The translations under genes were made by a program, and so were the position numbers. A stretch of 64,000 bases of DNA. Source: Gnetum montanum (lineage: Eukaryota > Plantae > Gnetophyta). Each line of letters begins with the position of its first letter. Within the stretch, counting starts at the first letter, position 1. Of the stretch, positions 3,701-47,055 are shown piece after piece. Location of the stretch: contig MNCI01000135.1 in the NCBI GenBank assembly GCA_015680685.1, forward strand, positions 269,424 to 333,423, given 5' to 3'. Under the pieces are notes generated by a model. That model had not been told where the DNA came from, made no database searches, and was given only the letters and a program-made list of their open reading frames with translations.

Positions 3701-5214
3701 TGTATCTTTGATATGGATTTACTATTTTTATTTTTTAATGAAATTTTTTTGAGGGTCTATGATAACAATCTCACCTCCCTTGTCATCCCCCTCCCCTCCA
3801 TTCCTCCCCATCCCCCACCTCGCCACATATGTATACTTGAGATTTCTAATATAATTGTTTCAATATTGCATTATTTCATCTTATCAAAAAAAAATAGAAA
3901 ATGAAAATATACTAACATTGTGGATTGACACTTATCTACACTTATCTATGCTTTCTTTACTACTTTGAGATGAGACCCTATCAAAAGTGCCTCATTTTTT
4001 GTAGCACAAAAAGGATAATCAAAGTGAACAAGGATTATACTAGTCAACTAGTTGAACTCATCTTTGGTGCTAGCACCTAGCTAGATTAGATATTATATAT
4101 ATATATCTATATGATTGAGAGTTAATATAAAAATTGAAAATGAATGCTCTAAGGATGGTATACAAGAAACTAGACTTATGCTTTAAAGACAAACAATAAG
4201 TCCAAACAAATCCCAACATTCCACTATCATCATTTCCAATGTCTGCTTGCCTTGCACAGTATCATCCAAATTTTTTTAAAGAGAAATAGTGGTATAACAA
4301 TTGAGTATTTATAGTATAAAATTTTTTAGCTGAGAGTGTGCGAGGTAAGAAATGTTGAAAATGATAGTAGTGGATTGCTATGATTTGTTTGAACTTATTA
4401 TTTATCTTTAAAGCACAAGTACATGGTCTTGTATATAGTTCTTAAAATATTCATTTTTAATTTTTATATTGACTCTTGGATATATAGATATATGTATTAT
4501 ATCTAATTTAGTTTATTATTGGCACATCTGCCTATACATCAGCCTCTTGTTTACTATTTCTCTCTTCATTCTTATAATTTGTTTATTTCTTTACTACTTT
4601 CTTTTCATTTCATGTTTTACTTTTATTAAAATCTTGCATGTCTTTATAGGTAATCATTTATTAAAGCGAGGGGATGAGACTTAATTTGGAGGTTATATTG
4701 TTGACAAAAGGTAAGGTTTTTTGCTTGACTCTTGGCTCATCATGTAGTGCTCACTTAGGAAAAACTCCAATGATGAGGTTTTGCCATGGCCTCCTAGTGT
4801 ATCCTTTGGTATATGGAGAATGAAATTGTCACACACATTTTGAAGGAATGTTTGTTTACAAAGACTATAGGTTGATTCATGCACATGTGAACTAGGATCC
4901 TATGGGATTAGTATTAGCTAATGATTATAGAAGGGTCCATCATTTAAAGACACTTTCATTAGATTTCATTATGGATGGAGATCACCTTGGCGATTAGCTT
5001 GAGAAAAATGCTTGCACTGTTCATGAAAAGTGTGTAAACTCTTCCTATAAATATGTCTCAAAAGCATTCACCAAATTTTACTTGTAGGAAAACATTCATG
5101 AATGCATGATGACAATGTTCAACACTTGTGGCTTCATGTAAGATGAGCTAATGTAGCACCCATAAATTGTTTGTCTAGATATGTGTACCCTATATTTTAA
5201 ATGAACTTTATGAT

Positions 5215-6402
5215 TAAAAAACCACCAAATCTGGGCTACTGCATCTTGACTACAAAATTTCCTAAGTGTCCGCATGAGGCCACTTTCTACAAATTTTGCT
5301 AAGTGCTAGGACTATGCTCTCCATTGCCCCAAAGTGTAGTTAGCCCAGTGAAGAGCATACTCACCTTCAAAAATAGATTTTTTGCAATTTTTCCTAAGTG
5401 TCATCATGAAGCAAGAAGTTGCAAATTTTTCTAAGTGTTGTGACTATGCTCTCCATTGCCTTAGAGCGTAGTCAACTCAGTAGAGAGCTTAGTTAACACC
5501 AAAGGGCAACTTTGCAAATTTTTCTAAGTGTCAAGTCAATAACTATCCCAACTGTCAAGTCAGTAACTTTGCCTTAGTGGAGAGTGTAGTTGGATGTAGT
5601 GTAGTGCCAACTATCCCACTACCATGTGGCATTTGATTTGCATTTTATGCTAACCCTAGGCCTATAAATAGCCCAGCCCTTGACGTTCTAGGGGTTGGCA
5701 AATTTGAAGGTGGGCAAATTTTGATTGTTCAAAAATTTGAAGGTGGAAAAATTTTTATTGTTGGAAAATTTGAAGTGCATTTGGCATTTTGGCAAGTCAA
5801 GGCATTGAAAAATTTCAAGTTAGCATTTGGCAAGGTTACACACTATCATAGCTCACTGCAGGACATCACAAACCACTACAGTCAATTGCACATTGTGGTG
5901 GCCAACCTAGCAAGCATAAATATCATGGTAGAATGTTAGTCTTCATGGCTAGACATCCCTGAGACTATGACTATGTTGTCCACTATGATTTTTGTACACT
6001 GTGTACCTTCTCATCCCTTTTGAAGTTAATTATGGTCAACCCTAGTTAGGGTGGTGTTCTATTCTCTTGCTCTTTTTCTGTGCATTTTTAGCATTTTTAC
6101 TTGCATTTTAAACATTTTACTTGTGTGTTCTGCTATTTTCATGCATAGGTATGCATTGATACCTTTGTTTTGCATTGAAACCCTTGAGTACGCTCACCCA
6201 CCATTGACATTTTTAACACCGCGAACATCACTCGACGCTTAGCATTGTTTGGCATTACATTCTATAAGTTCCTATTTAATTGACAAGACCATTCTAGGCA
6301 CCCTATCTCCACCTCTAGGAGGCCCTCATGTGGATGCGAGGTTAGGACTATACACCCATGGATCCCTTGGTATTCTAGCCATTGACATTTTTAGTCACTA
6401 TA
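5215..6402 (+). repeat. 5' LTR of element A
   Basis: Starts TAAAAAACCACCAAAT (3' LTR: TGAAACACCACCAAAT); ends CACTATA (3' LTR: CACTACA); TATA box CCTATAAATA ~5661; directly followed by the PBS. Confidence 0.92.
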
Positions 6403-6408: not shown

Positions 6409-6425
6409 TGGCGCTAGAAGGAGGG
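6409..6425 (+). promoter_or_regulatory. Primer binding site of A, tRNA-Asn
   Basis: TGGCGCTAGAAGGAGGG is the complement of the plant tRNA-Asn(GUU) 3' end CCCUCCUUCUAGCG-CCA. Confidence 0.9.
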
Positions 6426-6876: not shown

Positions 6877-9800
6877 ATGAATTCAAAATAGCCTTCGACA
6901 TCAATCTCAAGCACACTCACTATCTTGCCTACTCAATAAGAAAATAGGATTGACCACCTTGCCAATTCTGCCATGGTAGAGCTGAGGCAATCCTTCTAGC
7001 TACATGGCCAAGATCTAGAGTATATTACACTAAATGATGAATAGTATATCTTCATCTGTGAAAAGATCTAGGAAAGTCTATTTGTAGACCACCTAGATAT
7101 GGAAGCAAAGTGAGGTTATGATCTTGTCCACTAAAACAAACATGAGTACGTCCCTTCCTCTATTGACTTCATTTCACTTATTGAACCCTACTAGTGGATC
7201 CTAGCCCAACTCATCTGAACAAGTGACATGAAGTAGGAATGGACTATGAGAAGCCCCTACATGGGAAGGAGGATGAGTTTGAAGCTAATTCTGAGCATGG
7301 GGACTCCTTCCACATCTACTTTTAGTGGACAACCCCTAGTCTAGCCCTCCTACAGTCCCATTCACCTATCTTTCTTGTGATAATTATAGCCCTAGCATCA
7401 TCTTCCAAGTTAATGCCTATTGTAGCAACACACTAGATGCAACACATGTGTCAAGACATACTACCTCCAATTAACTTGCCCTCTGTGGCATTTTTGCAAC
7501 CTACCTAGCCATCTCTACTAGTAGCCATCATGCCTACCCAAACTTATGTTCACACTATGCATGTCTCTTAGCCTCAAACTACTCAAGCACCTTATGTCCT
7601 ACCTATTTCATTGGTACCCTCAATAGTAGTCTAACTGACACACACATGGCTAGCCCTAATCATTGTGCCCATAGCACAACCAACACAACAAGCATCTCAT
7701 GTGGTCCCATAACCTGCAGCTAGGTCATGGACCATGCAACTAGCACAATGAGTAGCACAACTAGCATAGCCCACTACAACATCCCATAACTTGGATAAGG
7801 AATTCCAACTAATTCAAACACTGATAGAAGAGGTCAAGTAGCTCAAGGCCACCTCCTCCAAAATAGTTCACATAGTGCACTTTTACTAGGATGATCTAAT
7901 AAGTCCTACTATTCCATTGTTGACTCTACCAACTAGGGTCCTGTTGCCCCAATTCACCAAGTACAATGGTGAAGGGGACCCCAATGCCCACCTGGTGATG
8001 TTCTATTTTGAGTGTGTATTATTGTAGGCATGGCCACACACCATCATATGCATTTTTGCCATGTCACTCGTTAGCAAGGCACTAGACTAGTACCAAGTAT
8101 TACCCAAGGCCTCTATCTCCTCTTTGGAGGATTTACTGAGTCAGTTTGTCATGCACTTCAAGTACAAATTAAAGCCTAAAATCATCCTTAACTAGCTCAT
8201 GCAAATCAAGCAAGGCCATTTAAAGTTAATGTAGAAATTTATCCAATGTTGGAGTGCTTCATTGAATGAAATCTGCGAGCCCATAGCAAAAACACACTTG
8301 CTAGCCATCTTCAAGGATGCAGTTAATGACTTCATCAAGTCAAAACTATACTACTTGGTCCTGTAGTCTTTGAGTCAAGCCTTTGCCCAAACCAAGAGCA
8401 TATAGGATGTGGTGGAATCTAGTATGGACCCAACCTATGTGGCCTATAAGAACTCACATGCCAAAAGGGATACTGACAAGGGGAAGCAAACTACAACCAT
8501 GGAAAATGTGGCCAATGAGGCCAAAATGGCTAATCAAAAGCCAATGACTAGGCCACCCAAGGCCTTGGCCAACAAAAAAACTGCTAGCCGTAGCATAGCA
8601 ACTAACCAAACTGCATCATCAATGACCATGGTGCAAGCAGCTTTGAGGTCCAACTTTGAGTGTAAGGATCACTCAAAGTATACCTTGCTACCCCTTACAG
8701 CTTCAAAACTATTGTACCAACTATTGAAGGCTAGATGTATTTAGTACAAGTAGATGTCTGAGGATGCTCACAAAAGACACAATAGATACTACAAGCTCCT
8801 AAGGAATCCCACATTAGTAGCCTTGAATGAGCCTCTAGTACCGAAACACTTTAGGCTAGAGAGGTTTTGCCACTATAACCAGTTGCTTGGGCATATTATT
8901 AATTTTTGCATGGCCCTATAGGATGACCTCCAATGAATGTTTGATAGAGGTGAGTTGGTACTCCATGCTACCAACCCAGTGAGGCCTCAAAACCAATCCA
9001 TGAGGGTATACAAGGATCCTCTGAACATGGATGACATATGTTACATCATCAACGCTATCAACATTATTGATAACTTGGAGCCAGTGCAACAGCCATTTGT
9101 GGTCCATGTACCCTCTAGTAGCATAGGGGCCCCCTCGGCCTCCATGAGTTTGAGGCCCCCTTTCATCATCAGAGTGCCACCTTGGGCATTTACAACACCC
9201 TTCATGGTTAGGGTTCCACAACATGTCATGTTAGCAATAGTTCAAACACCCTTTGTCATTAGGATGTTGCAACATGCTAACCCCTCACCTACCTAAGGTC
9301 TAGTGATGGGTAATGTGCCATTCCCTTCCCACCCAATAGCCAATCCTACTGGCAACACTAATAGACCATCTAGGTCACAATTTGGAAGGCCTAATAAGCA
9401 TCTAGCTGATAGGATGATTTGACAACATTAAGAGTAGAGAGCGCTCAATTTGTCCAAACTAGTCCCCCTTTTTGTAGTCCCCATGGCCAAAGCAATTAAG
9501 GAGGCCACCACTAGTAGTCCACAACCAAGAATTGGGGCCTCTACGTAGGCTAAGCCAACCAAGCCCAACTCCCCTTTGTGAGAAATTAATATTTTAGGAT
9601 GTATGGAAGAGGTCAAGGCCAACAAAATGATAGACAATAGTAAGGACTTTGTAGATGCACTAGCCCAGGTTAAGCAAGCGTTAAAGCAGAAGAACACAAC
9701 AATGAGCCTTTATGGCTTGATTATGACCTTGTCCATCCACTGTGAAGCACTAGTATGGATTTTGACCTCCATTCCTATCATGGAGGACATCCGAGCAGAT

Positions 9801-9900
9801 GAACATTTCATTCACACTATGATGCTACTCCCTACATCATAGGAATTGACCTCAACACCCCTTTCATTTCATGATGAAGTGATCAAGGTTGACCCTAAGA
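6877..9900 (+). pseudogene. gag: gag of A (many stops; boundaries approximate)
   Basis: PQFTKYNGEGDPNAHL..F..EC capsid motif ~7948; Tat-type zinc knuckle FCHYNQLLGHIINFC at 8865-8909. Confidence 0.9.
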
Positions 9901-9965
9901 AGGCTCAAGTCATAACAGCATCCATGTTCATCACTATACATTTCAGGTAGTGGATAATTCAAAGG

Positions 9966-10572
9966 GTGCACATTGACAACGAGGTTGCAACCAATTTTAT
10001 CCCATACACCATGATCAACAAGCTAGGCCTTGTTGACAAAATCAAACCAACAAAGATCACATGCCTAAAATCCTTTAGTAGGTCACACGTCATTGTCAAG
10101 GGTAGTAAGACAATAGCCTTCATGGAAGGGAAGCAATTCCTCACCACTGCTGAATTTATCATTATAGAGAAAATGCTAGGATTCAACTTAATATTGGGCA
10201 TGCCATGGTTTGCCCAATTATGGGTTGTTTTCTCTCCAATCCATCAGGAAATCCACCTTCCATACAAAGGTGGCAAGGTTATTATCCATGAGGATAACAC
10301 AACCCCTCTAGCCATTAACAATATAGACATGAAGCAAGGGTCAGAGGTGGAGTTCCCTAATTACACATATGTAGTAAAGGATGAGGATGAAACATGTGAG
10401 GCAAACACATTTGAAAGGACAAAAGAAACCAATGACCTCTCGGAGGATGCTCTGTGGGCTGAGTTGCCCTTAAACATCACAAGTGAAGGTTAAGGAGACT
10501 ATTGCATAGTAGAGTTTAGGCCCTAGGCACCACCTAATTCACACAGGATTAGGAAGCAATTGCACAACTAAG
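9966..10572 (+). pseudogene. Aspartic protease region of A
   Basis: HIDNEVATN (degenerate LIDNGS..N) ... FNLILGMPW in ORF 9966-10493. Confidence 0.88.
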
Positions 10573-10889
10573 GTATCCACTTAGCCTAAAACACACTAGG
10601 TGCCTACCTAACCTTCACTTCTACACATGATGCATTTTACCTTTTTTATTTACATTACATTTGTTTACACATTTACATTTAGCTTGAGTATTTAGATTAT
10701 GCATCATTTCACTTTGTTTACGCATTTATTTACTTTTTTTTTTATGCATTCTTCTTAGTTTACACATGTACTCATTTAGTTTACCCTTTAGTAGTTATTA
10801 GGTTAATGCATAAAAAACATTAAAATGTATATAAAATCATAAAATCTAAAATTACAAGAAATAAGAGGTGGTAGTATACTTTGCCTACC

Positions 10890-11050
10890 ATGGCCCTAAA
10901 CTGACAATGCTTTGGCTCAAAATTACCTTAAACTATTACAATGGCCTGGAATGGCCTTAAACTACCACTTGGCCTTGAATGGACTTAAACTAGCATTGGT
11001 CCTTCCACTATGGCCTTAAACTAGAATGGGGCTCATAATGGTCTAGTTAC
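10890..11050. repeat. ~30-bp tandem repeat, core TGGCCTTAAACTRG
   Basis: About 5 degenerate units; similar arrays at 19960-20440 and 35445-35590. Confidence 0.7.
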
Positions 11051-11296
11051 ACCATCATCACATAGATTTAACTCAGCATATTTAGCATATTAACTCATCA
11101 CATGATAACCATAGAAAGTGCATAGCAAATAAACACAAAACATAAAAAAAAAAGTTTACACATTACACACTACACATACCAAATACCTTCAATAAATATC
11201 ATATGAATAACAGTACATAGCATGAACAGTGTCATGTAGCAAAAATACAGCAAAAATAGTAAAAGAAAAAAAAAACACCTAGCAGTAGGGCTACAT

Positions 11297-14200
11297 TAGT
11301 TCATGCTCAAATAGTGGTTCTAGGAGGGGGTGGAGGTTCTTCCTTCCCCATCACATCACTAGGGCCCACAGCATCTCCTACTACCTATTGCCATAACCAC
11401 AACAAAATGAGCAATTAGTAAGTAAATCTATACTACACAAGCTAACTCAAAGCATGCAAACACAAACAAAAAACTAACTTGAGAGGGTCCTACATTGATG
11501 TCTTCTAGATGTAACTTTCCAAGGCCATCCTCCAAGCGTCAAAGGATCTTAGCCTTAGAAATCTATGTCTAGTCCTCCTAGCCAAAGTCAATCCCCATAA
11601 GGGTCTTTCCTTTGTCCATGGTGGTTCATGTGGGTGGCTCCATCTAGATTGTGGTAGAGGAAGCCTCTCCTCAAGGGGTGACAATCTACCTCTTAGGAGA
11701 GCCACTCACCACTGTGTGCCAAGGGAACAACTTATATGCTTGCCTTTCTCCAATCATCTCAAAAAACATCTCAAGGCAGTGGCGTTTGGTGGACTCTTCC
11801 TTGTACCATCGTAGGTATGCATCATGCTCGTGCTTATATTAGTGCTTATTTTTCTTCTGCATCTACCTCCACTGATACATCTTAGTGTTGTAATTCTTAC
11901 AATCTTGGTTCTTTTGGATGAGCAAGTCCATTTGTAACCATTACTCTATCACCTCCTAGGTGGCCTCATTCTTGCCTTTGAGAGCCAATCAATATTAAGC
12001 ATATTCTATCTCAGAGGTTCACCAAGTGCTATCTCCCTATGACCTAGACACTAGAAAGTCATATCTAGCTTGAAGATCATTGATCTTCGTATCTTGGTTG
12101 GTCACCCTCTCCTAAAGCTTGTGCATATATTTCCACAGGTGCTCATTCGAGCACTTGCAAACCCACAATGCCTTTGCATAGGAAAATATGCACTTGTTTA
12201 ATGTCTCATACATGTGATGAGACACTTTATCAATCTAAGGAGGGAGGTTAGGGAGGGCATCCACCTTGGCCACCTTTCTCGAATCCTATTGAAGCTTAGA
12301 ACCTATAGGCATGAAACAAGCAATTAATCTTAGCCACAAACTAAGCATTCAATTGGTAAAGCAACATTAAGCAAAGCAACATAGCAAACATACCAAGCTT
12401 AGAATCTACCTATTGTAAATGATCCACCATGTCCTCAACAATGTCTTCCATGAAGGAAAATTTATCAAGCATGTCTACCCATAGCTCCATGTGGTAGGTA
12501 GAAGTGGGACTACTAGTAGGAACATTTGAGGCTATAACATAATGATGTAATCATCATATAACAAAATAGCTAAAGATGCTAGAGCAAAAAAGTAATAATA
12601 GATGACAATTCAAGTTACTTACCTAGCAAGCGCTTAGGCATGAATGTATAGGGGTCACCGGGCTATACACCATCAAATAGGTAGTCAAAATCACCCCCAT
12701 TAGGATGAAGCAATCACTCCTCCTCCAACTATTGAAGGATCTCTGTTGCCTTAGGCAACTCATCTTCATGAGCCTTCCCCTTCTTGGCTTGAGAAGGTGC
12801 TTCTTCTACTATTGCATTGGTTGCTACTCTTGCAGCCCTCTCTCTAGTCTTTGCACTCAACACATATGCATAGCACATTAGTACTAGTTAATAGAATATC
12901 ATAAATGAAAATACAAAAATATAGACATACATTAATACAATAAATGCATCCAACAAGTTATGCATACTAACCTGCAACCTTTTTGTACAAGATTTGAAGC
13001 TTGATATAGATCTTCTTGCTACTTAGTCTCTTGACCTTAGGGGTAACCTCCTTCGTAGGACATGGCCTTTTAATCTTTACTTTAGATAGTCCCACCATCT
13101 CTATGATATAGTAGTATGTCTTGTTCACATCCCTAATGCCAATTGGATGACCCTCACTCGTGATATCCTATGAGTAATGTGACTATCCCATGGGACCTTT
13201 AATTATTATGGATAATGACTCATCGATATCCTCTGGGGGGTCTTGTGCCTATGTGGTCATGAACAAGTTCTTAATCTATGGTTTGGATAACTATTTGTGA
13301 TCTTTCACAACCCATTGTCCACCATCGTGCACAACCAATAGCTCTGCAAACCTTCATAGGTACCTTGCAAAGAATGCAAAGTGGACATGGGACCTTCCTT
13401 GGATGTTAAAATATAGCTTGGAGATCTCCCCATGCAAGTTGATCACTATATAGGAAGCATCATTGAACCTTGTACCCTCTAGCAACACCTCTTTCATCAT
13501 CCATTCCTACTCCACCCTAAGGATCTTTCCTTGGGAGAGCAAGTTTGAAAAGACATGAGTGCAAAAAAAGAGGCTAGAGCTCTCATACCTCAAGCATAAG
13601 CACATCCTTGATTGGTATGCCCTTGTGAGATTGAGTGACCCCCAACTTGTCCTTGATCTCCCCTCTACGGTCCACCTTCCTACTAGCATTATCAATGATT
13701 GTTGGGCCATCAGTGGAGAGTCCAAAGAGGTCAGCAAAGAAGGCCTCACTGAGGTTAAGCACTACCATCACACCACTCACTTAGATGACAAACTACCTAA
13801 TGTCATTGCTAAAGGAGTCAATGATGGTGACCATTTTGGACACCAAAATACTTGGGCTAAAGGAAAAAAATAGGTTCATTAACCCTGCATGCGTGAGCAT
13901 AGCTATCAATGCATCTAAGGCCTTGTGGCACAACCAATGCTATGCACCCTCCACATTGCCATATTTCATCCAACCAATCATGGGTCCTACACCACTCATA
14001 TGCCCTTGGGTATTAGGTAGGGTAGACCTCCAAATTAGACCCCACCTACTCAAGCATAGTTGCTTGAACATTTGGGCTAGAAGAGAACACCTCTAGGGTA
14101 GTACAGGTTAAGGCTAGAGTATTCACCTAATAATGTAGGCCCTCCTCATCAACTTTGAACTTGGCATTAAGCATGAGCAGTTAGCAATATGACATGGACA

Positions 14201-16060
14201 AATAGTAAGAAATAGATTGTGAAAGCCATGAAATCACTTACTCTCCAGCACAATAGATAGTTCTAGGTAGGTTTTGGAATAGGATGTGCACTCGTAGTGT
14301 GATAAAAATGATGTTGCTCTTATTGTAGCAACTAAACCCCATCATGTGCCATATCCTGAATAGGTACTAAGTGCTCCTAGTTCCTTTGCTTGAATCACTG
14401 GCCCCATCACTGCTAGCAATAGGCTCATCTAAGATGAACCTCAAGATGTCTTGGTTAGCCCTAGGTAGTAATGTCTCTATGCTGGCACTAGCAACCTCCA
14501 CTACTAAGTGTGACCACATCATCACACTAAATTGTTGTAGTAGGTACTCTAGGAACTCATGAGTGGTTAGCTAGAACCACACCACCTGAATACCCACTTG
14601 CATATCTAGCACAAGCATGTTAGGAACATGCTTGCTTATATAGCATAGGATGCCCATAATATTTATGATGATTAATACAAGCTTCAGTAGTACCCTGCAA
14701 CTTCCAAAGTAACAAATAGAGTGTTAGTATACAGACATGGATGCAATTCTTGCCATAAAATTATTAAGTTAAGCTAGCAAAATTAGCATAATACAATATG
14801 GATTAGCAAACAATTTCTTCATTTTGGCAATGCACCCTAGGGCCCCATGAGTATAGGACATCAACCAATACATTTGACACACCTGGTACTCACTGGGATA
14901 CAACATGTTTGCATACGATTAGCTTTTAGTTTCATGGGTCTAGTGTCATGCATGGTTTATGAAATTTTGGCAAAATCTTTTCTAACTCTGGACAACGTAG
15001 CTCAAAAAGTTGCAAAATTTTTTCTAACTCCCAACAATGCTCTCTACAAAGTATGGTCCTTAAAAAACTAACTTTTAGGGTAGATGCATTTTGTTAAACA
15101 CTTAGCATCAACTACACTTCCAAGGTGTGGAGAGTGTAGTCCTAGCTACCACCCCAATGCCTTTTGTATGCATATGCATTGCTAGACCCTGCCTCGTCAT
15201 TGCCCCTGCAAAAATGTTTTTTCTAGAAAACAAAAAAGAATAGAAAATGCACCCTAATGCTAAGTTCCCTTGTAACCCTTGAGGTTGTGCAATCATGATG
15301 CAGGGTGTAATCTCCCCCATAGATCTTACCACCAAACCATGGGGTGTAGTCACCCCATGGCCCCAGTGTTGCGTGGTGTGCCTAGCCTCTGACCTGTCCT
15401 GCAACCCAAAAAATCAAAAAAAAAAAAACTTCTTTGCCTCATGGTGGGCTACCCTTGGCCACCACCAAAACCATAATCCCTAATTTATCCTTTCTCATGC
15501 CATAAAATGAAAAATCTTATTCTAGAAAGGAAAGAAAAAGGTAGGATAAACCCTTGTAGCATCCTTATGTCACATCCCTTGCTCCATGGTAAATTTCCCT
15601 TAACTCTCGTGATGTCAAGTGTAGCCTATAGCCTCCCCACTGTGCAACCCTAAAATGACCAAATTGAAACCCCTACCTCATGTGTAGATTAAAAGAATTT
15701 TTTTTTTAAAAAAGGTTTGCAAAGCAAACCCCCACCATGTCCCTTACCCCATGGCAGGTTGTCCTTGTCTACCACTAAAGCCTAAACACTCACAAGAGAA
15801 AAATAACAAAAAATGATAAAAAAATGAGAAAAGAGGAGAGAATAGTTGGGATACCTAGCTGACACTAATCATCTCCTTTCCTTCATGCATGCCTATGGTA
15901 GGCAACCTAGTGTGTGTTCCCTCTCATCCATGTTCACTAGTCCTAGGTGTAAGCATCCACTCTGGTGTGTCATCCTCTTCCAACTATGCTCTCCACTAGC
16001 AATGTGCAATGGTAATAGCAAGAATACTCTTTGAAATTTGCATTTGAAAATTAAAAAATG
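11297..16060 (-). pseudogene. Antisense multi-exon accessory gene of A: FCP1/NIF-like domain + PMD/Transposase_32-like domain + coiled-coil
   Basis: Minus-strand introns 15854-14695, 14241-~14161, ~12971-~12850, 12622-12532, 12393-12303, 11478-11385 (GT donors, mostly intact YAG acceptors). Peptides align with those of element C. Confidence 0.8.
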
Positions 16061-16085
16061 ACAACTTACCCATGGTTAAATGCAC

Positions 16086-16093
16086 CTATATAT
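16086..16093 (-). promoter_or_regulatory. Putative TATA box of the antisense gene (ATATATAG)
   Basis: Lies ~230 bp upstream of the first minus-strand donor (15854) and just downstream of LTR-like motif half-sites at 16171-16212. Confidence 0.5.
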
Positions 16094-16513
16094 CCTCCCA
16101 GGGTCATTTAATGATCTACCAACCTAAGACTATTTTCCATACTTAGCCAAAATTTTTAACTTTTAGGTGAGAGCATAGTTGGATGAGAGCATAGTTGGGT
16201 GAAAGTGTAGTCACCTACACTTAGCGAAAATTTTTAACTTTTCATAGCCTAGTGAATGCCCAAGCAAATTTCACTTCCCAAAGGTAGGCAACCTTCCCCA
16301 GAATGGCACATTTGATGCATCCTTAGTCCGCTAAGACCTAAAATTAGCATGCATGACCTACTAAGGCCTAAAACCATCACAAGTATGGTTACCCTTCTTT
16401 ATAGCCCTTATGCATACTTAGGAAAATTTTCATTACATTGCTTTCTGTTCATTTGTGCATATTAACTTTGTTAAGATAGGTGTCGCTTAACATTTTGCTA
16501 GTTTTTTTTGTAG

Positions 16514-17770
16514 GAATATGACATGGTTATGCATGAGTAGATCCTCTCATCTCTAGTTTTTATAAGGCCTCATGGTAATATCAAGTGAGGCATTGACCTA
16601 CATTTTTCTAGACCTTCAGCCTACAACCTATGCTGAATACATAGCATTTGTAGAGGCACCACTAGACTAGCCTAACCGTCTGGTTAAGGCTCTCGATCTA
16701 GAAGTAGGGGATGTCATAGAGGATTCCCTTGTTGAGATCCCTGTGGCTACACCTAATGGTGAGGCAAAAATGCTAAAACTAAGCTCCTCAATATCCCTAA
16801 CATGCCTAAGACATTACTAAGGTGCTAAACAATAAGATCAAGGTCTTTGCATGGTCATATGAGGACATGCCAGGCCTAAACCCTTGGCTAGTTCAACACA
16901 ATATCATTCTCAATCCCTGTATTAAACCATTAAACTAGAAAGCATGCAAGGTTAGACTTGAGGTGGCATTGGTAGTCCATGATGAAATCACCAAGCTTTA
17001 CAAAGCTAGTTTCATCTAGGCTATTGACTATGTAGATTGGGTCTCCAACATTGTAGTTGTGCCAAAGAAAAATGGAAGTATATGCATTTGCATAAACTTC
17101 TAGGACCTAAACAAGACAACCATTCAAGATGACTTCCCATTACTTAGTATTGATCAACTGATTGATACCATGGCTGGACATGCCTTATTATCCTTCATGG
17201 ATGGGTTCTTGGCCTAGAACTAGATTAGGATCAACCTTGAGCACTAACTTAGTATGACCTTCATGAACCCCTGGGTACATTTTGCTCTATCATGATGCCT
17301 TTTGGACTCAAGAATGTAGGAGTAATTTATCAACACATAATGACCTACATATTTAGTGATTACATGCTAAGCCTGCTCAATGATTACGTTGATGACATTG
17401 TAGCTAAGTCCAAAGCCGCCCATAATCGTGCAAATGATGTAGACATAGTGCTTAAGCATTACTTAAAACATGATCTTAGTTTGAACCCCAAGAAGTGTAT
17501 TTTCAGCATTAGAATAGGATGGATGATTGATTTTGTAGTATTAGATGTAGGCATATGCGTAGACCTCAACAAGGTTAAGGTCATAACCAACGTAGCACCC
17601 CTAGCCAACCTTAAGGAGCTACAAGGGTTTCAAGGAAAACTACAATTTATATGTAGGTTTATTATGTGGTTAACCAATAAGTTACAACCAATGCAATATC
17701 TGCTCAAGAAAGAATTCCACTTTGAGTGGACAGCTCAATGCCAACAAGCATTTGACAACCTTAAGTAAGA
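16514..17770 (+). pseudogene. pol: Reverse transcriptase of A
   Basis: WVSNIVVVPKKNGS.CICINF.DLNK, DDFPLLSID, LSFMDGF, MPFGLKNVG, DYVDDIVAKS, LNPKKC. Confidence 0.95.
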
Positions 17771-17809
17771 GCTGGTACAACTTCCTACACTTTACCCTCT
17801 ACAAGGCGA

Positions 17810-18630
17810 TAAACCTTTCTACATCTACCTTGCCACTTTTGATACATCCATCACTTCTCTACTTTGCCAAAAGTGAGATAATGGCATAGAGGTCCTAGTT
17901 TATTACTTGAGCCATGCATTAGTAGTCCATGAAGCAAAATACAACAATGTGAAAAAGCATTACCTCGCCCTAGTCTTCTCACTAAAGAAGTGGAGGCATT
18001 TCCTTTTTTGTAGTCAAGTCAACATCATTTGCAAAAATAATGTACTATGAGTAATCACAATGAACATCTAAAAGAGTAGTCATATTACACAATGAAAAGA
18101 AATAATAGTGAAGTTTGACCTACACTACATTGTGCAATCCTCAACAAAAGGTCAAGCTATAGCTACACAACTCATGATTTCACTTGCTAATGATAAGTCA
18201 ACTATAGACCTTGAATTCTTAAATGAGCATATTAGGAGTGTTAGCCAAGTGCTTGACAACTATGAGGTACTCCTGCATTTTGATGAAGCTTCAACCTCCC
18301 AAGGAGGTAGTGCCACTACTATTATCACATTTCCCTCCAAGGAGATCTAACCCTTTACATATCATTTTGCATTCCCTTTCACTAACAACATGATGGAGTA
18401 TGAAGGTCTCCTTTGAGGTATCCTTGTAGCACATAACCTAGGGATCCAACATAGAGTGATCCAAGGCAACTCATAATTAGTGATCAAGTAGGTGATGGAG
18501 GTTTACGCCTACAAGGATCAACATTTATAGCCTTACTATGACCTGAAAAAGTACTTGCTTCAACACTTTACAACAACAGATGTCCAATATATTCCTTGAA
18601 ACAAAAATTCCATAGCTGATGCACTAACAA
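17810..18630 (+). pseudogene. RNase H followed by additional archaeal-type RNase H (aRH) of A
   Basis: RH: VYYLSHAL...KWRHF, KGQAIA. aRH: LHFDEAS, TNNMMEYEGL, IQGNS.LVI, NSIADAL. Confidence 0.88.
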
Positions 18631-18899
18631 CATTAGTGTTAAGCATTGCATCAGACATGTTCCATGCATTGCCCACCTCAATGGTAGATTCCACTATGCC
18701 TATCACACAAATCACTAACGTTGCATTCATAGCCAAAATAAGCACAACCCATGTAGGAGAATGATATGATGATAGTAAGGCATACCTTCTATAGGGTGAG
18801 CTCCACAACATTTGACTACTGCACAAAAATATGCAGTGCATAAATGTTCATGGTAGTATGTCATCATGGGTGCTGACATGCTATGTCGCAGATCCTATG

Positions 18900-19957
18900 A
18901 TGGCATACTATTAACCTATGTAAGTAATGATGAAGCATAAATAATCATTGAATAAGCCCATGAGGGAGAGTGTGGAGGTCAGATAGCATTACATGAAGCA
19001 CGATTGCATTTCAAACATCAAAATGTTCAATATGTGTCAATGGCATGCCAACTTAATGCATGTGCCACCAACTAAACTACACACAACATAGATCACGTGG
19101 CCATTCCAATGTTAGGGGTTGGACATCATCAGATCCATAATGCATACGTCCTCTATAGGGCATAGCTTCATAATAATCACAATTGAGTATTTTACCAAGT
19201 GGGTTAAGGCTATTCCCCATAGGAAGATAACATCAAAATAGGTTTGTAAATGTGTGCTTGATAACATAGTGACCCGTTTTGGTTTACCCATGAACATAGT
19301 AACAAACAACGAGCCACAATTTAGCAGTGTCGAAACTAAAGATTATTGTGAGCACTTTGGTATTAAGCATTTCTTCTTGTTGCCACATTACCATCAGGAA
19401 AATGGCCAAGTAAATGCCACTAACAAAGTTATCATCAATCTTCTAAAGAAGATGCTAAGCAATAGTAAATGACAATGGCATGAACAACTAGTTTATGCAC
19501 TTTAGGCCTACCACACAACACACTAAATGGAAATAGGTAAGACACCTTATAGCCTTGTTTATAGGTTTGAAGTAATTTTAGTACTTGGATTGTAGGTTGC
19601 ATCGCTCTAGGTGATCCTCTCGAACTTTATCGATGAAGCTTAGAATAATGAGTTGAGGATTATGGACCTCAACTTAATAGAGGAGGAGTGTATGTAGATG
19701 TTTGATCACATCGAATGGTAGCAAGAAAAGTAATGGAAAAAAAAAAACTATCACAACCAACTTCAACACCTAATCAGGAAAGGGAACATAGTCCTCAAGG
19801 CCATTTATGAACCTATGAACAAATTCTTAGCCAACTAGAAAGGGCCTTTCATAGTTACTAAGGCTTATAAAAATGGAGCATTCTAGCTTGCTGATTAAGA
19901 TGGGAATGAGTTTGCCAATCCAGTTAACTATTCATACCTAAAGTCACACTATGCCTA
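18900..19957 (+). pseudogene. Integrase of A
   Basis: HEGECGG, WPF...GLDII, EYFTKWVKA, RFGLPMNIVTNNEPQF, YHQENGQ, GPY/F module N*KGPFIV. Confidence 0.92.
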
Positions 19958-19959
19958 AC

Positions 19960-22154: not shown

Positions 22155-23697
22155 TGAAACACCACCAAATTTGTGCTACCGCATCTCAACTACAAATTTT
22201 CCTATGTGTTGGGACTATGATCTCTACTACCCTAGAGCATAGTCAGCTTAGTAGAGAGTGTAGTCAATACCAAAGGCTAGCTTTACAAATTTTTCTAAGT
22301 GTCAAGTTAATAGCTACAGATTTTTCTAAGTGCTAAGACTATGCTCTCCACTGCTTTGGAGCATAGTCAAGTGTAGTTAGCATGGAAGATCCAATTTTGC
22401 AGAAATTTTCTAAGTGTTGAGACTACACTCTCCACTGCTCTAGAGCATAGTCAAGCATAATTAACTAGAAGCTAGATTTTGCAAAAAAATTTCAAGTGTT
22501 AGGACTATGCTCACACCTAATCAGGAGCATAGTTAGCCTCCCGTGGAGAGCGTAGTTAGCACATAGCCACTCTTCTGGAAAAGTTTTCTAAGTGTTGGAC
22601 TACACTCTTCCAATGTAGAGTGTAGTTAGCTAGAACAACCTTCAAGGGCCTTCACAACATAGCATCGACACTCATCTCAGCTCCAACACACCTCCAGCAA
22701 ATGTAGTTAGCAAAAATGCATCCTTTTTATGTCCCTTTTTGGCCCCAAATTGTAACTACACTTGATCCCACTCAAGATAGTGGATAGCATAGTCCCAAAG
22801 CATAGTCTCCAAAGTTTCATTTTTTCATATACATTGCAATCTTTTCAACACATGCTCATGTAGTTGGCAGTGTAGTCATAGTCTCACAATCTCACAGAGT
22901 CGTCAGAGTACACTAGAGCATAATACCACTTGCCTCAATGAAGAGTGTAGTTGGGTGTAGCATTGTCCTAATTTTTCGACTACCATGTGGTAGCTGATTT
23001 GAATTTCATGCTAACCCTAGGCCTATAAATACCCTAGCCCTTGATTTTTTAGGGGCTAGCAAATTTGAAGGTGGGAAAATTTTGATTGTTGGAAAATTTG
23101 AAGCACATTTGGCATTTTGGAAAGTTGAGATTTAGCAAGGTTACACACCACCATAGCTCACCGTAGGACACTGCAATCCATTGCACACTATGGTCACCAA
23201 TTTGGCAGGCATAGACATCATAGTAGAATGTTAGAAATCATGGCTAGACACCCTCAAGATTGTGACTATGTTGTCCACTATGCTTGTTGTACACTGCATA
23301 CCTTCTCATTCCTTCTGAAGTTAACCATGCTCAACCCTAGTTGGGGTGGTGTTCCTTTCTCTCATTCTTTTTCTATGCATTTTTAGCATTTTTACTTGAT
23401 TTTTTGGCATTTTATATGTGTTTTCTACTATTTTCATGCATAGCTACACATTGACATCTTTGTTTTGCATTGAAACCCTTAATTATGCTCATCCCCTATT
23501 GACACCATTGACACTATGAACACTGCTTAACACTTAACATTGTTTGACATCACATTATGTAAGTCCCCATTTGATTGACAAGACTATTCTAGGCACCTTG
23601 TCTTTACCTCCAATAGGCCCTCACATGGATGCGGGGTTAGGATTGTGTGGCCATGGATCCCTCGGTATTCCAACCATTGATGTTTTTAGTCACTACA
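22155..23697 (+). repeat. 3' LTR of element A
   Basis: TG...CA ends; homologous to 5215-6402 but ~350 bp longer in the U3 repeat block; followed by the TSD. Confidence 0.93.
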
Positions 23698-31707: not shown

Positions 31708-34700
31708 ATGGAATCTGACCAAGATGTAGTGAGGGTCTATGATCCGAAAGACACAATAGTAGTTGAGCGTAGGAAATTACTTAGATAGAGGGGTCAAAGT
31801 TCAAATTTTTTTGTTATAAATGAAGAACACTATAACTTCATTTATGCCAAAATCCAAGCTAGCATGCTCATTCCATGTGGGAAAGCTAAATCTAAATGTG
31901 AGTATGAGCTAATCCACCACAATGGAAAGGAGTACATTCCTTCCACATATGAAAAAATACTATTGAACAATACTCATAATTGCATTCTATCTCAATTGAT
32001 CGAGATGGATGAGCAAGAAGGGAAGTTGAACACAAAGAGCCAACATGAGAAATCGGACAAGTTCAAGGCTGAACCTAAACCTGACAACTTCCTAGGGAGC
32101 CTCTTCCAATAATTGGCTCCTGAAGCCATTGTAACTAATTTTCCTCTCTTGTCTCTTCCATGGGACAAGGGCATCAAACCTCTTCTCCCATTTACCCTAC
32201 CATGTCTGGGTTAGCTCCTATCACAGTGGTTCACCATGCACAATCGGTACCCTAGATAACACCCCTCTTCTCCTCTATGCCTTTCATCAAATAGCCTCAG
32301 TCTGCACAGTCATCACCCATCATCATAACCACTACACATCCATTATCTATGTTGGAAGATCCCATAGTGGGAAATCAAGTGATCCAAGGGTCACATATAC
32401 CTTTTTCCCTTTTGTGTCATAAGTGCCAACACAAACCTCCTTTTCATTATTTAACCCATCTACAACAATGATTACCCAACCTCTTCCCTCTGTGCCATAA
32501 TCCATGGTAAGGCCATAGGTCTTGCAACTTACACCACAATCATTTTTCTATATGCCATAACCTACAGGGATGCCCAAAGGCTTGGATTAGGCCTTTCACA
32601 TGATCCAGAACCTTATAGAATAGTTATGAAAGCTTAAGACTTCTACAACTCAAATAGTTAAAATAAAGGATTTCTATCAAGATAATCCTATTAGTCCTAC
32701 TATCCTGAAAATAACTCTTCCTCAAGCATTTTCATACCTCAATTTTCCAAGTATAATGGTGAAGGTGACCCCATCTCTCACCTCAATTTTTCCTATGTTC
32801 TTAATTGGGAAAGTCTTGGATTAGTACCACATATTACTAAGAGGATCTATCTTCTTACTTGAGGACCTAATATCATAGTTCATCAACCATTTCAAGTATA
32901 ACTTAAAACCCAACACAACTCTTGACCAATTAATGAAGGTCAAGTAGGGACACCTTGAGGTAGTGCAAAAATTTATACAATGATGGAATGTTCTATTGAA
33001 TGAGATTCTAGAACCTATAGCTAAAACACATATTCTCACCATCTTTAAGGGGATGGTTAACAGCTTCATTAAGTCCAAAATTTACTACCTATACCTATAG
33101 TTACTTAGCAAAGCTTTTTTGCAAACTAAGAACATAGAGGATGCTATTAAGACCAATCATGACCCTACCTACATGGCATATGAAAACCAACACATGCAAA
33201 AAAATAAGGAGAAGAGGAAAAAGAATAAGGAGAAGAGGAGGCAAAACAATGTAGCCATGGCCCCTACAATCAACAACAAACCATCAACATCAAAGGCCTC
33301 TACATTAGGTAAACCTAGGCCCAGTTTTGAAAGAAAGACTAGTCTAAGTACACTAGGTTACCCCTCAAACCTTCTAAATTTCTTGACCAATTTCCAAAGA
33401 GTGGGAGAATATAATATAAATATATGACAAAGAATGTCCATAAGAGGCATGATTGACTATGCAAGATCATAAAAAAACCCACTCTAGCAATCAAGGATGG
33501 CCCACCAATATCTAAGTACTTTAAACTTGATCGCTTTTGCCACTATCATCAACTACTACATCATGATACTAACTTCTACTTAGCCCTCAAGGGTGACTTG
33601 AAGAAAATGATAGATGATGGTGAGCTAGTTCATGATGCCTTCAACCTAGTCAAATCACAAAACCAATCTATGCAAGTTTACAAGGACCCATTGAATACCA
33701 ACAACAACCCTTACATCATAGCGACATTCAACATAAGTAACAACTCAAGACCTACATTGGAGTTCTTTGTGATTCAGGTACCTCCTTGTAATGATAGGGG
33801 CCCTTCAACTTCATTTAGTTCAAAGCATTATTTTTTTGTAAGGATATCATTGCCTATGCCTCCTAGGGAACCTTTGTGATTAGGGTGCCCCCTTTTTTCA
33901 CAACCAAAAAAACAACTACAACTAAATGTCCTCTTGCAGTGGCTAATACCATGACTTCTTAGTAACACAATAATAAGAAATAATTGATTAAACAACATAA
34001 GAAGTCTACATCAAAGTGTAAAATAAAATAAAACAATCAAGCCAAGGCATGGAAGGAGGTATTCCCATTGAAGCCCACTACCATCTCATCCATTTTCATG
34101 AGCTCTAAAACTCAAGCTACTTCAACTAGTTAACCAAGGGAGGATCCTAAGCCGCAAAGGAAGGGAAAAAAGGCTAAGCCACAACCATTAAAAAATGAAG
34201 TTTACATCTTGGGAAGCATGAACAAAGTCAAAGATAATAAGAATGAAAAATCAATGGCCAATGACAAGGACTTCCTTAAGGTGATGGAAAATTTTAAGTA
34301 GTCTTTGAAATAAAAGAACACATCTCTTAGCTTGTGTAACTTGGCAATGACTTTTGCTACACATCATAAAACATTAGTGAAGATGTTGACCTCAATTCCC
34401 TTCAATGAGAACATCCCTACTAGTGAAGAGTCCATCCATGTGGTGATGGTACCACCTTCACCAAAGGAAGAAACAAAGTCAACTACATTAGTATTTTGTG
34501 ATAGCTAGGTCAAGACCAACCCCTAGGATGGTAAGACAACCAAGGCTCCTTTCTTCATAATGAAATGTGGGGCAATATAAGGTACTTAGTGTGCATGTGG
34601 ATGATGGGACAACCACCAATATAAGGTACTTAGGTCTAATAGAACACATTTAGCATATCTCCAATTCTGCTCTTAAATTCTTTAATGGATCTAAGGAGGC

Positions 34701-35163
34701 AGTTAAAGGCTCAATCTCTTTGAACTTTGTAGCAAGGAAATAATTCCCCATAATAGCCAATTTCTTGGTGGTGGAAGAGATACCAATATTTAATCTCATC
34801 TTAGGGAGGCCTGGCTAGCTTAATTATGAGTTGTTTCCTCACCCCTTCATCAAGAAATTTACCTAGATTATTAGGGAGGTAAAATAATTATCAATCATGA
34901 TAGTGCAGCCCCCTTGGTAATTAACAACATTGACATAGAACAAGGATCTAAAGTGGACTTTCCTTCCATTGTTAATCACAAAGTTGAAAAGCCTAGTAGA
35001 GTGGAAGAGGCCTAAACAAATAACAATAGAACCATGAATGCACCATGGGAAGATCTCCCCTTCAACATGGATAGTGAGGGAACATGGAATATGGGATCAT
35101 GTAATGTAGGCCCTATAGCTTTCCTAATCTTTCAAAGGTTAGGATACATTTGCATAATTAAAT
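31708..35163 (+). pseudogene. gag: gag-protease of C
   Basis: MESDQDVVRVYDPKD, PQFSKYNGEGDP, FCHYHQLLHHDTNF knuckle, VHVDDG, FNLILGRP. Confidence 0.9.
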
Positions 35164-36059
35164 GTATGCTCCTTATGTACTTACCCTATTTCCACAATTG
35201 TATAATGCCATATCTTACTTATGTTGTCTAATTTAACCTTGTTTGCCTTTGTCTAGCTCTATTTAGCACATAACCTATGGTTTACTTGCATTTATCATTT
35301 ATGTCTTTAAGCCTTTTCTTTTTCCAAAATGTAAAACCAAGAAAATATCATAAAAATTTTAAAATCGAAAAAAAATATATAGAAATTTTAAAATATAAAA
35401 CTTAAAAAAAAAAATTTTCTCTTTTAAAATGCATGTCTTACCATCAACTAAAACTAGCAAAATAGATGACCCTACTATGGCCTAAGATTGGCAAAATGCA
35501 ACGGCTTGCCATGGCCTAAAATTGGCAAGACAATGGCCTATGAAGGCCTTAAGCTGGTGGTCCACCATGGCCTAAACTTGGCAACATTCCCACAACTTGT
35601 TTATAGCCATTACACATTAGTTGACCTTTTTGTTGGCCTACTTAATGTTGATTTTACTTTACCAAATATCGCCATATAATAGCATGATTCAACAAATATG
35701 GCCTAGCATATCCTCATAACATGAAAAAAACATAAAACACATAGAATGCATAAAACAAAAAATGCTAGAAGATATATAACAAAATTAAAATCTTAAATAA
35801 ATAATAATAATGAAAATCTCCATAAATAATAATAGTATGATACAAGTCCAATCAAGAACGAGTGTATAAAACAAACAAACAAAATTCCCAATAGCCATAG
35901 CTACAACATGTAGCAATAATGTAAGAAAAATAATAAGTGCCTCACAAATAAACCATGCCTAAGACTAGCCACAACATCATGACATAATCAAAAACAAGAA
36001 TAAATTGGAAACATGACCAAAACAAATGGAACTAGTGTACAACTGGAGGTGGGGGGGCG

Positions 36060-36061
<2 letters not shown>

Positions 36062-36091
<30 letters not shown>
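36062..36091. repeat. (GA)n microsatellite preceded by a G-run
   Basis: Directly visible in the sequence. Confidence 0.95.
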
Positions 36092-36093
<2 letters not shown>

Positions 36094-37765
36094 CTCCAAC
36101 ATCATCACCACTAAGGCCATTGGTATCACTTGGTACCTATAACATAATAACATATTTTTAATCAATAGTCAACATAATATGAAACCAAATCAAAAACTAA
36201 ACAAAGCTAAAATATAACTAATTAAAAATAAAAAAACTTGGAAAGACTTCAAAGTAGTGTCTTCTATAGGGAATCTTTGAAGACCAAACTCTAGATGATG
36301 GAGGATTTGGTCTTTAGTCATGTGAACCCAATCCACTTCCTCAAGATTAACACTAGTTAGGATGTTTCTCTCATCGATATTAGTCCATGTCAGTGGCTTC
36401 CTTGAAAATTTGGTAGTAGTCACCTCTCTAGAGGTGGTAGTTACCTAACAGGTTGGGGAATTAGCAACCACTAGAGAGCCTTTAAATCGCTTGAAGGCAT
36501 CATTTGCGTGGATATCCTTCATGACTAGTTCTAGCTTGCATCGTTTGATGAACTCCTTCTACAACCACTTAAGGTAACTCTCAAGTTTGGCCTTGTACTT
36601 TTTCTTATGGTTCTTTTGTGCCTAGCCCCACTTAAGAACACAAGCACAATAATCTCTCCACACTCTTTGGCCTTACAAGCTACTAAGTTCTACTACATTT
36701 TCTACTCTACATGGTGCTTGGCAAGAGCAACCTTATAATGAATGATGTTCCAATACTACACCCATTAAATCTCTTTGGTTCCTAATGAGTTCCTATGAGA
36801 ATCCAAAAATTCCTTACGATCCTTGAGATCTCCAATCTCCTCGACCTATTTCTTATTTTCCTTCTTCAACACTACAACACACTCCCATAGGAACTCATTG
36901 GAATGTTGGCATTTCCATAAGGTTGTTTCACATGAAAGTGCACATTCATTGGTACTTTCATACAACCATTTTGGAACATTTTTTACTTTAGGTGGTAGGT
37001 TGGGTAATTCATTGAGCTCAACATCATGTTTGAAGTTCCATCCAACCTTTGACACTACAATCAACACAACCAAACATGAATGCATTAAACCAAGTAAATA
37101 ATAAATGATAAAATGAACAAAAAAAATTTAAACCATTAAGACCATAAAATCATAAAAACAACATGAAATAAGAATACATAAACTAAAATAATTAAAGGAA
37201 AAACGAACTAAGATTCTTACCAACATTAGGAGTAATCTGTTGCAACTGATTGATCATGTCTTTGGTCATCCCTCACATGAACTCTATTTTTTCTAGAACC
37301 TTTTCCCATGATTTCATGTGAAACATGGAGGTTGAGGCATCAATCTGAGGTTTAGGAGCTACAACAAGCATGACAAAAAACTAATAGTTAAACATAGGCT
37401 TAAACATAAAACTACAAGATGTAACACATAAAATGAAAAATCATAAGTACTTGGAACATCATCCAAGATGACGATGGAAGGTTCACCTAGTGGTGAATCA
37501 CCATATATAGCATCAAAGGCATCCATGGTGGCATTGGATAGCCCCTCATCCTCATTCCATTATAGCATCTTCTCTACAAATTTCTATTCTACCTCCACTA
37601 TTGTTGCTTGGGCCACTAGTTCTTGTTATTTACCTACAAGAACAATGAAGATAATACATAGAGCCATTGAGCATATTTTTCCTAAAATCAAAACAACAAC
37701 ATACCTACATAACATGAAACATAAATACCAAATATGTAAATAGCATAACATAATTAAAATGTACC

Positions 37766-45800: not shown

Positions 45801-47055
45801 GGGATGTGGCTCTAGTGTAGTTAGGATTCCAAAAAGATTTTACTAGCTTTGCTTCACTTTGAATGGCCTAACACCTAATTGGGAAAGCTTAGAGTCTTGA
45901 AACTTTGGAGCTTGCTACATCTTTGTCTTATTTTGACCTTCAAAAGTCTAAATCCTATCCATCCATAATGGGACCACCTTCAACTAAGTTGGATAGTGTA
46001 GCTATGGGCTACAAGGTCTCAAAACCCACTTTTGGTCACTTATTTTGATCTCCAAATGATTAATTCACAACCCTGATGCCTCTATGCTATCTTGTGAAGC
46101 CCATAGAATATAAATTTTAATCTTGGAGTGTCACAAATTTAGTTTTACCATGGAACCACACTAGGGCCACACTAGCTAGCTTAGTCCTAGTGTGGGTGGT
46201 AGTTTTGGATTACATTTGTAATCTTAGGAAGGTTAAATAAGCATCAAAATTAATTAATATTTATCCCTAGTCCATTGCACTACCAATACAGACTATCAAG
46301 ACTCGAAAATTAACTATGATGAACCCAAAATCCCACATGTTGACATTATCCATGCTAGGGCTTATCCCACCCATGTGGGCTAGCATGGATCTAGTGTGGG
46401 TCTAGCATGGATGCTAAAGGGAGCCTCATTTTTCCCTTAAAAAACCTTAAAATGATCTCTCCAAGTGCCCAAACTCTTCCATCAACCTTACAGCTTATCA
46501 CCATGGGTTGCTAAGGCTTTAAATTGGCAAAATCTAACCTTAATTGACCAATATTAACCATGTTTTATCCCATGCTTACCATCTTGATTGGTTTGGCCTT
46601 GTTTCATTATGTTTTTTCTTGATTCAACATAATTATACATCATTGACCTTTATTTCCCTATCATATTATGTCATTGAGCTTCTTTTTTGTCATTGTAGCC
46701 TCATTTGATTCTAATTTCACAAAATTATTTTATTCTTTGGCATAATTTAACCTTAATGAACTAGGTTTTGCATCAATTAACACTATTATACATCACTGTA
46801 ACCTTGTTTTACCATCTAGAATATCATTAAATGGAGTTTAACCATCATTTGGCCTTCATTTGACCTTATGTAGCCTTTATTTTATCATATTTGTTTTTAC
46901 CTATATCTTATAACTTTTGTTGGCCTTGTTTAAATGTTGTTAGACCATGAAATAATATGTTTTGGATTATCCTTGCTTTATTACTAAATTATTTTACATT
47001 ATTTACTCATTTTATCACACATGTGACACTTAATGTGCTTATGGTTGATATGCAG

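Follow-up and report, generated by a model that had tools for sequence, protein, structure and literature searches.

Can a long terminal repeat (LTR) retrotransposon house a second gene, itself split by introns and read from the opposite strand, inside the intron that separates its own protease (PR) from its reverse transcriptase (RT)? This question is raised by a decayed Ty3 element, here called A, in a 64,000-nucleotide stretch of Gnetum montanum DNA (assembly GCA_015680685.1, contig MNCI01000135.1, positions 269,424 to 333,423; the window hereafter), which an initial annotation had described as a nested two-gene retroelement. On the basis of a comparison with a second element of the window, B, we consider it quite probable that a Tat-clade Ty3 family carried a second, intron-containing antisense gene within a predicted PR-RT intron.

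In A, the segment in question can be read on the minus strand as the following gene (coordinates are those of the window; aa, amino acid):

16085..16092, minus strand: candidate TATA box TATATAGG, in A only
15855..15931, minus strand: candidate first coding exon, from ATG to donor, phase 2, with two stops, in A only
14695..15854, minus strand: candidate intron 1, 1160 nt, in A only
14242..14694, minus strand: NIF-like exon, matched in tblastn (E 6e-30) by B 42164-41709 at 40% aa identity
14161..14241, minus strand: intron 2, 81 nt, phase 2 (104 nt in B)
12972..14160, minus strand: large middle exon, frameshifted, with five segments at 30-50% aa identity to B
12884..12971, minus strand: intron 3, phase 1, with a nested insertion within its B counterpart
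12623..12883, minus strand: poorly conserved exon, segment score 29, within the shuffle range
12532..12622, minus strand: intron 4, 91 nt, phase 1, GT-AG in A and B (92 nt in B)
12394..12531, minus strand: 138-nt exon, of equal length in B, 39% aa identity
12303..12393, minus strand: intron 5, 91 nt, phase 1, GT-AG in A and B (166 nt in B)
11479..12302, minus strand: exon of 824 nt, probably encoding a coiled coil, with aa identity to B of 33-35%
11385..11478, minus strand: intron 6, 94 nt, phase 0, GT-AG in A and B (101 nt in B)
11307..11384, minus strand: last coding exon, a proline run and then the stop; B ends in ...PAPPPPVVH and a stop

Most of the details described for A were recovered. 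All six minus-strand GT donors are present (GTATCC at 15854, GTAAGT at 14241, GTTAGT at 12971, GTAAGT at 12622, GTATGT at 12393 and GTTAGT at 11478), as are the three peptides that had been quoted, and the three short introns credited with intact YAG acceptors (91, 91 and 94 nt) each end in TAG, with a T content of 0.46-0.50 and a GC content of 0.25-0.34. The exon phases link correctly (2, 2, 1, 1, 1, 0) and yield, decay aside, one continuous spliced frame of about 1000 codons in total. In A the gene has decayed to a relic, broken by numerous stops and no fewer than three frameshifts, and from A alone the gene call would be weak because none of its pieces matches Pfam.

A translated search in the window revealed B, in which minus-strand matches to the exons of A occur in the same order between protease and RT. 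The gene of A is more than a chance reading because B holds a homologous one within 35138-47055; the segment is found in another copy of the family, where its absence would have counted against the initial annotation. The parts of B are:

31750..35137, plus strand: gag (31750-33900) and protease relic (to 35137), located by translated search
35138..47055, plus strand: predicted PR-RT intron in phase 0, with GT and AG both preserved, lengthened by one or more nested insertions
36060..42158, minus strand: antisense gene, with introns at 41706, 41336, 39999, 37450, 37220 and 36237, located by homology to A
47056..47602, plus strand: linker and start of RT, interrupted by another LTR at 47603

B has an extra, seventh GT-AG intron (41336-41053, 284 nt, phase 1). 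Intron 3 of its antisense gene is interrupted, 7 nt inside, by an insertion (about 37797-39991) that is akin to the LTRs at 47603 and 56691 and showed no matching target duplication.

Conservation between the two copies follows the exons of the minus strand. When the best of nine frame pairs was taken for each of 11 exon segments, 10 exceeded the top score of 200 shuffles, one of them marginally (36 vs 35), the failure being segment 12860-12624; for nine of the 11, the minus strand gave a higher score than the plus strand. Protein identity is about 37% for the antisense gene vs 51% for gag-pol, and synonymous sites are saturated in both (proportion of synonymous differences, pS, 0.75 and 0.73). 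With the two weakest segments omitted, the ratio of nonsynonymous to synonymous differences (pN/pS) across the remaining nine was 0.52 (95% interval 0.46-0.58, 622 codons), vs 0.91 when these columns were read on the opposite strand; the gag-pol value between A and B was 0.37. Since protein-guided alignment is biased toward low pN/pS, the comparison was repeated with a codon-blind DNA alignment of eight of the 11 segments, where differences at codon positions 1, 2 and 3 amounted to 0.45, 0.34 and 0.62 (third vs first, p 1e-9). By these measures, the antisense exons are under purifying selection on the minus strand. Predicted introns 2-6 agree in position and phase between A and B; of their 10 splice dinucleotides, 9 are canonical in A and 8 in B. 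Four of these introns (81/104, 91/92, 91/166 and 94/101 nt) could not be aligned above shuffles (z 0.0-0.8), while the exons could (z 4.6-26.4). Such a layout, shared by two copies at synonymous saturation, implies that the family likely moved as a nested two-gene unit.

The intron of the sense strand was placed in A by the same comparison:

10548..16513, plus strand: predicted sense PR-RT intron of A, 5966 nt, phase 0, acceptor TTTTTTTTGTAG

In B, the sense sites read AAG/GTTAGG at 35138 and TGCAG/ at 47055, and the acceptor of A at 16513 is preceded by a T run. Both joins are in phase 0, and the frames on each side are homologous (after the acceptor, EYDMV...IRPHG in A and DWSME...IRPHG in B). 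If unspliced, the Gag-PR frame reaches a stop after seven intron codons in both elements, ...PNSHR/IRKQLHN and stop (10569-10571) in A and ...PNLSK/VRIHLHN and stop in B. Another candidate donor, AAG/GTATCC near 10573, was rejected, as it lies past this stop and out of phase with the acceptor, and B indicates 10548. Self-comparison of 10548-16513 revealed no pair of terminal inverted repeats (TIRs) or LTRs at the bounds of the segment, in line with the initial annotation, and only an internal 24-nt direct and a 19-nt inverted repeat, although old termini may have decayed. The AT-rich stretch between the antisense stop and the sense donor shows weak homology between A and B (E 2e-5 to 3e-6).

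The segment is also not peculiar to these two copies. Contigs of four DNA runs, under three species labels (one with two samples), were placed at 80% likeness. In run X1, which may stem from the source sample, the summed contig depth over 10706-15143 was 1052-3434, within the range recorded for gag (880-9215) and to be compared with about 5.5 for contigs that match exactly, summed depth not being equal to copy number; the profile over the segment was alike in the three further runs. The antisense segment is clearly repeated. Among the 32 records listed, six diverged ones (4, 13, 19, 20, 21 and 27; about 80-83% alike) span intron 5, which they thereby retain, and one (26; about 83% alike) spans the protease and the start of the intron; none of the 32 spans the RT-side acceptor. 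Together with the B copy and the selection on the exons, the depth upholds an antisense, multi-intron coding gene in the PR-RT intron as a feature of the family; of the architecture initially described, the splicing stays a prediction. Within candidate intron 1, the central part (15144-15777) is nearly single-copy and matches single contigs in two other species labels at about 91%, which suggests that the insertion of A predates the split of those species labels.

What the antisense protein might be is less plain. A NIF-like domain, as first proposed, is indicated by weak but concordant signals in B: a Pfam PF03031 match with E 0.0094 (16.1 bits, gathering cut-off 21.8, profile positions 37-88 of 160, the only match), a TIGR02245 match with E 0.071, and a first Atlas match of 0.86, all 10 of the 10 best named matches being NIF. 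The corresponding piece of A gave no Pfam match. The catalytic motif of PF03031 is DxDx(T/V), and no catalytic aspartates occur at the expected place, placed by eye in these decayed copies (INIMGIL in A, IKLVSLL in B). As neither copy has them, the NIF-like part is more likely an inactive module than an enzyme. Its structure, predicted from two sequences, reached a mean confidence score (pLDDT) of 47.8, too poor for a search for the haloacid dehalogenase (HAD) fold, and a sequence search of PDB gave chance-level matches only, none under E 0.05. The coiled coil is plausible, given a weak Pfam match (E 0.099) of the B piece of the 824-nt exon. The PMD (PF10536) or Transposase_32 (PF20167) domain that had been proposed is unsupported because the middle exon has neither family nor homolog: single-frame pieces of A or B gave no Pfam match to either at E <= 10, in a scan whose sensitivity is lowered by frameshifts and decay. 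Word searches yielded 155 candidates for the middle piece and 88 for the two NIF-like exons, none of them a homolog; an Atlas search with a 65-residue middle stretch retrieved none either, and of 29 and 407 pattern matches in two metagenome scans none was confirmed.

Several observations weigh against the proposed nested gene. Its full-length reading is limited to two copies, both relics, and both transcripts are deduced from DNA sequence alone. At the sense donor position A has AGG/ATTAGG (10548), with AT in place of the GT of B. On the antisense strand, both copies have CAA at the acceptor of intron 2, that of intron 3 is uncertain in A (TAG at 88 nt, or about 110 nt at the position matching B), and the stretch holding the seventh intron of B is absent from A. 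Upstream of the NIF-like exon, A and B have no alignable sequence; consequently, the TATA box, exon 1 and intron 1 are known from A only, and although the TATA-like word at 16092 and the donor at 15854 exist as described, this part of the original model is unsupported in the absence of a counterpart in B. The PF03031 match of B is below the Pfam cut-off and outside the region of the catalytic motif, and HMMER, run against 1.84 billion representatives with a decayed query that was one-third out of frame, found no homolog of the middle and C-terminal parts at E <= 0.001. Finally, depth over RT and RNase H (RH) in X1 is 12,379-18,845, several-fold above that of the antisense segment, so that relatives without the gene may be common, or else too diverged to map.

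How well, then, do other explanations account for the locus? One, which we regard as improbable, is that a separate mobile element (e.g., an intron-bearing DNA transposon gene) or a host gene entered the ancestral PR-RT intron once and was amplified as a passenger, without any service to the element. The introns and the NIF-like domain do suggest a cellular or DNA-transposon origin, the PMD cargo of Tat elements is related to the PMDs of Mutator-like elements (MULEs) (PMC4408406), and constraint on the antisense gene is weaker than on gag-pol (pN 0.39 vs 0.27). Neutral decay would be expected of a passenger, however, whereas codon structure and intron phases were kept despite saturated synonymous sites and unalignable introns, and the segment has no terminal repeats. 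A single capture may fit the origin of the antisense gene, not its upkeep.

Just as little probability is assigned by us to the possibility that the antisense gene is real and the region unspliced in sense RNA, pol being expressed from its own promoter or by another route. An intron of about 6 kb is far above the Ogre mean of 274 bp (PMC6317226), and the sense donor of A is non-canonical. Against this, the GT and AG of B join both frames in phase 0, the acceptor recurs in A together with a T run, and coding homology ends and restarts exactly at the sense sites. The last alternative, in which an independent multi-copy element inserted at the PR-RT spacer twice, separately in the lineages of A and B, could draw on the full reading of only two copies and the unalignable 5' part of the segment, but is very improbable in view of the identical slot and orientation, the similar synonymous distances of cargo and gag-pol (0.75 vs 0.73, both saturated and hence a weak argument), the weak homology next to the sense donor, and the diverged contig joining the protease to the intron start.

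A single antisense gene inherited within the PR-RT intron being preferred, the nature of the carrier can be considered. The remaining features of A are:

5210..5214, no strand: left target site duplication (TSD) ATGAT, an identical 5-mer being at 23698-23702
5215-23697, plus strand: whole of A, an LTR pair flanked by the TSD ATGAT
5215..6402, plus strand: 5' LTR, from comparison with the 3' LTR
22155..23697, plus strand: 3' LTR, from comparison with the 5' LTR
6409..6425, plus strand: primer-binding site (PBS) TGGCGCTAGAAGGAGGG, with similar sites at 26476 and 30921
6960..9230, plus strand: gag relic, ends approximate, 49-53% aa identity to the gag of B
9480..10571, plus strand: protease region and end of the Gag-PR frame, named by sequence and position
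16514..18640, plus strand: linker, RT, RH and additional archaeal-type RNase H (aRH), by Pfam
18951..19959, plus strand: integrase (INT), Pfam rve 4e-8

By its domains, A is an old, decayed Tat-clade Ty3 retrotransposon with the order PR-RT-RH-aRH-INT. Its age follows from the LTRs, which are only 82% identical over 768 aligned nt (Kimura two-parameter distance, K2P, 0.215), and its assignment to Tat from the PR-RT-RH-INT order within LTRs, the 5-bp TSD, the aRH and the RT/RH tree. Pfam found RVT_1 (2e-8), RT_RNaseH_2 (2e-21) and RVT_3 (1.3e-9) in 16514..18640, the last being the aRH between RH and INT, and no match in gag or the protease region; the PBS is presumably of tRNA-Asn type. RT-RH is 30-41% identical to its best database matches. 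In an RT/RH tree of the 61 of 78 matches with enough overlap, whose rows include no labelled references, A falls inside a 34-row clade (100/99) with aRH-bearing angiosperm matches, on a long branch (1.46); within this clade the tree gives it no firm place relative to Ogre. The aRH between RH and INT also occurs in Retand and in gymnosperm Tat J/K, and hence is not diagnostic of Ogre. CG and CAG/CTG are strongly depleted (observed/expected 0.13, 0.37 and 0.46), which fits the abundance of TAG stops.

Other observations concern the surroundings of these features. The motif ACTATGCTCTC is present at 5311, 5443 and 22338, within the repeated 5' portion of each LTR, and at 15983, 16179 and 16195, around the candidate antisense promoter, where it occurs in both orientations; it could be a regulatory site common to the LTRs and this promoter. 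A 72-bp tandem array 3' of the integrase of A (20484-21188, minus strand) is open for 145 minus-strand codons and encodes a 24-residue repeat rich in K, A, S and M, with no match in Pfam and with high depth in all four runs; it is possibly a second antisense open reading frame (ORF) occupying the usual Tat slot, or a mere repeat. Shorter nested tandem repeats (a 161-bp pair of units of about 30 bp) lie just past the integrase, at 20001-20377. Upstream of A, an inverted repeat at 4097-4497 (143-nt arms, 78% complementary) is possibly a relic of a miniature inverted-repeat transposable element (MITE). A third relic of the same group, at 25900-29500, has gag and the similar PBS at 26476 and stops before the protease, where B starts. 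The RT of B is interrupted by an LTR element (47603-58413) of PR-aRH-RT order (TatI/TatII or 'copia-like' Tat type), a kind known from gymnosperms, whose presence in the window suggests a non-angiosperm host; a related copy in the opposite orientation (61086-64000) runs off the window end.

One can propose how such an element would have worked. The LTR would drive a full-length sense RNA which, when unspliced, would be read as Gag-PR up to the stop seven codons into the intron, a stop seen in two copies, and, as in Ogre, would serve as the genome for reverse transcription. Splicing at the phase-0 sites would join Gag-PR-RT-RH-aRH-INT in one frame, the frame being visible in the DNA and the splicing predicted. 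A promoter within the intron, close to its RT end, may have given rise to an antisense RNA split by six or seven short GT-AG introns, its product of about 1000 residues comprising a NIF-like domain, a middle part and the coiled coil. The antisense introns would survive replication because the genomic RNA is of the opposite strand, on which they would read as CT-AC. The position might be beneficial, as the Pol message would carry no complement to the antisense RNA; an intron acting as a cargo-tolerant slot is the simpler reading. If spliced RNA were packaged, the gene would be lost; the expectation is thus either that such RNA is kept out or that there are copies from which precisely the intron is missing. 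As to function, we tentatively suggest a nuclear accessory factor, acting against host silencing or for transcription of the element, in which the NIF-like part would probably be an inactive phosphoprotein-binding module. This suggestion is drawn by analogy with the PMD-coiled-coil ORFs, with the VANC anti-silencing proteins, which resemble MAIN (PMC13547354), and with an orchid demethylase.

One of the nearest known systems is Ogre, which shares the RH-aRH-INT order, the 5-bp TSD and the Gag-PR frame closed by a stop, and which has an in-frame intron before RT such as is predicted in A and B. Its dominant PBS is of tRNA-Arg type (89% in REXdb), whereas that of A is presumably tRNA-Asn-like. 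An extra PMD ORF of Ogre is 3' and antisense or 5' and sense, in contrast to the gene of A and B between PR and RT, where PMD was unmatched in the pieces scanned. The Ogre spacer averages 274 bp, with no gene reported inside it, as opposed to 5966 nt with a gene in A (PMC6317226). Antisense extra ORFs are common in Tat elements; the PMD and coiled-coil ORFs of Tat III/IV/V, the TRP28 antisense ORFs of Retand and gene23 of Grande are, like the gene of A and B, conserved and accessory, mostly antisense and often with a coiled coil, and their reported positions are 3' of pol or 5' of gag (PMC4408406, PMC7264820, PMC11963269). They are described as open reading frames lying 3' of integrase or 5' of gag, and differ from the gene between PR and RT of A and B, which has six or seven introns and a NIF-like part and matches neither PMD nor TRP28. 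Deltaretroviruses carry spliced antisense genes such as HBZ. Another antisense gene within an LTR retroelement is brtn of the fungal Boty (named in PMC7264820 and PMC8365987). Both are sited in the interval from pol to the 3' LTR or at the 3' terminus, outside a sense intron, and their proteins are unrelated to those of A and B. An AlkB demethylase ORF in an orchid sister of Ogre is comparable as a domain of cellular origin fixed as an accessory gene of a Tat element, but it is a separate additional ORF beside a single Gag-Pol ORF, and its domain is a different one with demonstrated activity (PMC9289625). Gymnosperm Tat J/K elements have, by their described domain order, the 'retroviral' RH-aRH-INT arrangement of A, and elements of this order are reported from conifers II, Ginkgo, gnetophytes and ferns (PMC13468544); the main text of that paper makes no mention of an intron, antisense or extra ORF (eORF).

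Our literature search, subscription papers lying outside its scope, found no account of a PR-RT intron that contains a gene, nor of any LTR element with a NIF domain. Spliced antisense genes as such are less rare in LTR elements than the initial annotation implied; antisense Tat ORFs and the Ogre intron being known separately, the new part is the position, a spliced antisense gene inside the PR-RT intron. The predicted outcome is an LTR retrotransposon with introns on both strands of the same DNA, of which the sense intron must remain in packaged RNA yet leave for Pol, and the six or seven antisense introns are invisible to the genomic RNA. It would represent a third slot for Tat accessory genes, filled by a domain type absent from the REXdb table of extra-ORF domains. 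A wider reading, rather doubtful, is that there is a widespread non-angiosperm Tat lineage of nested genes, in which an Ogre-type intron controlling Pol output would house a spliced antisense gene. Its protein, about 1000 residues long and with a captured C-terminal domain (CTD)-phosphatase-like domain, would be used by the element to steer host transcription or silencing. If this is true, such nested genes would by design have escaped surveys that look for long open frames on either side of the polyprotein.

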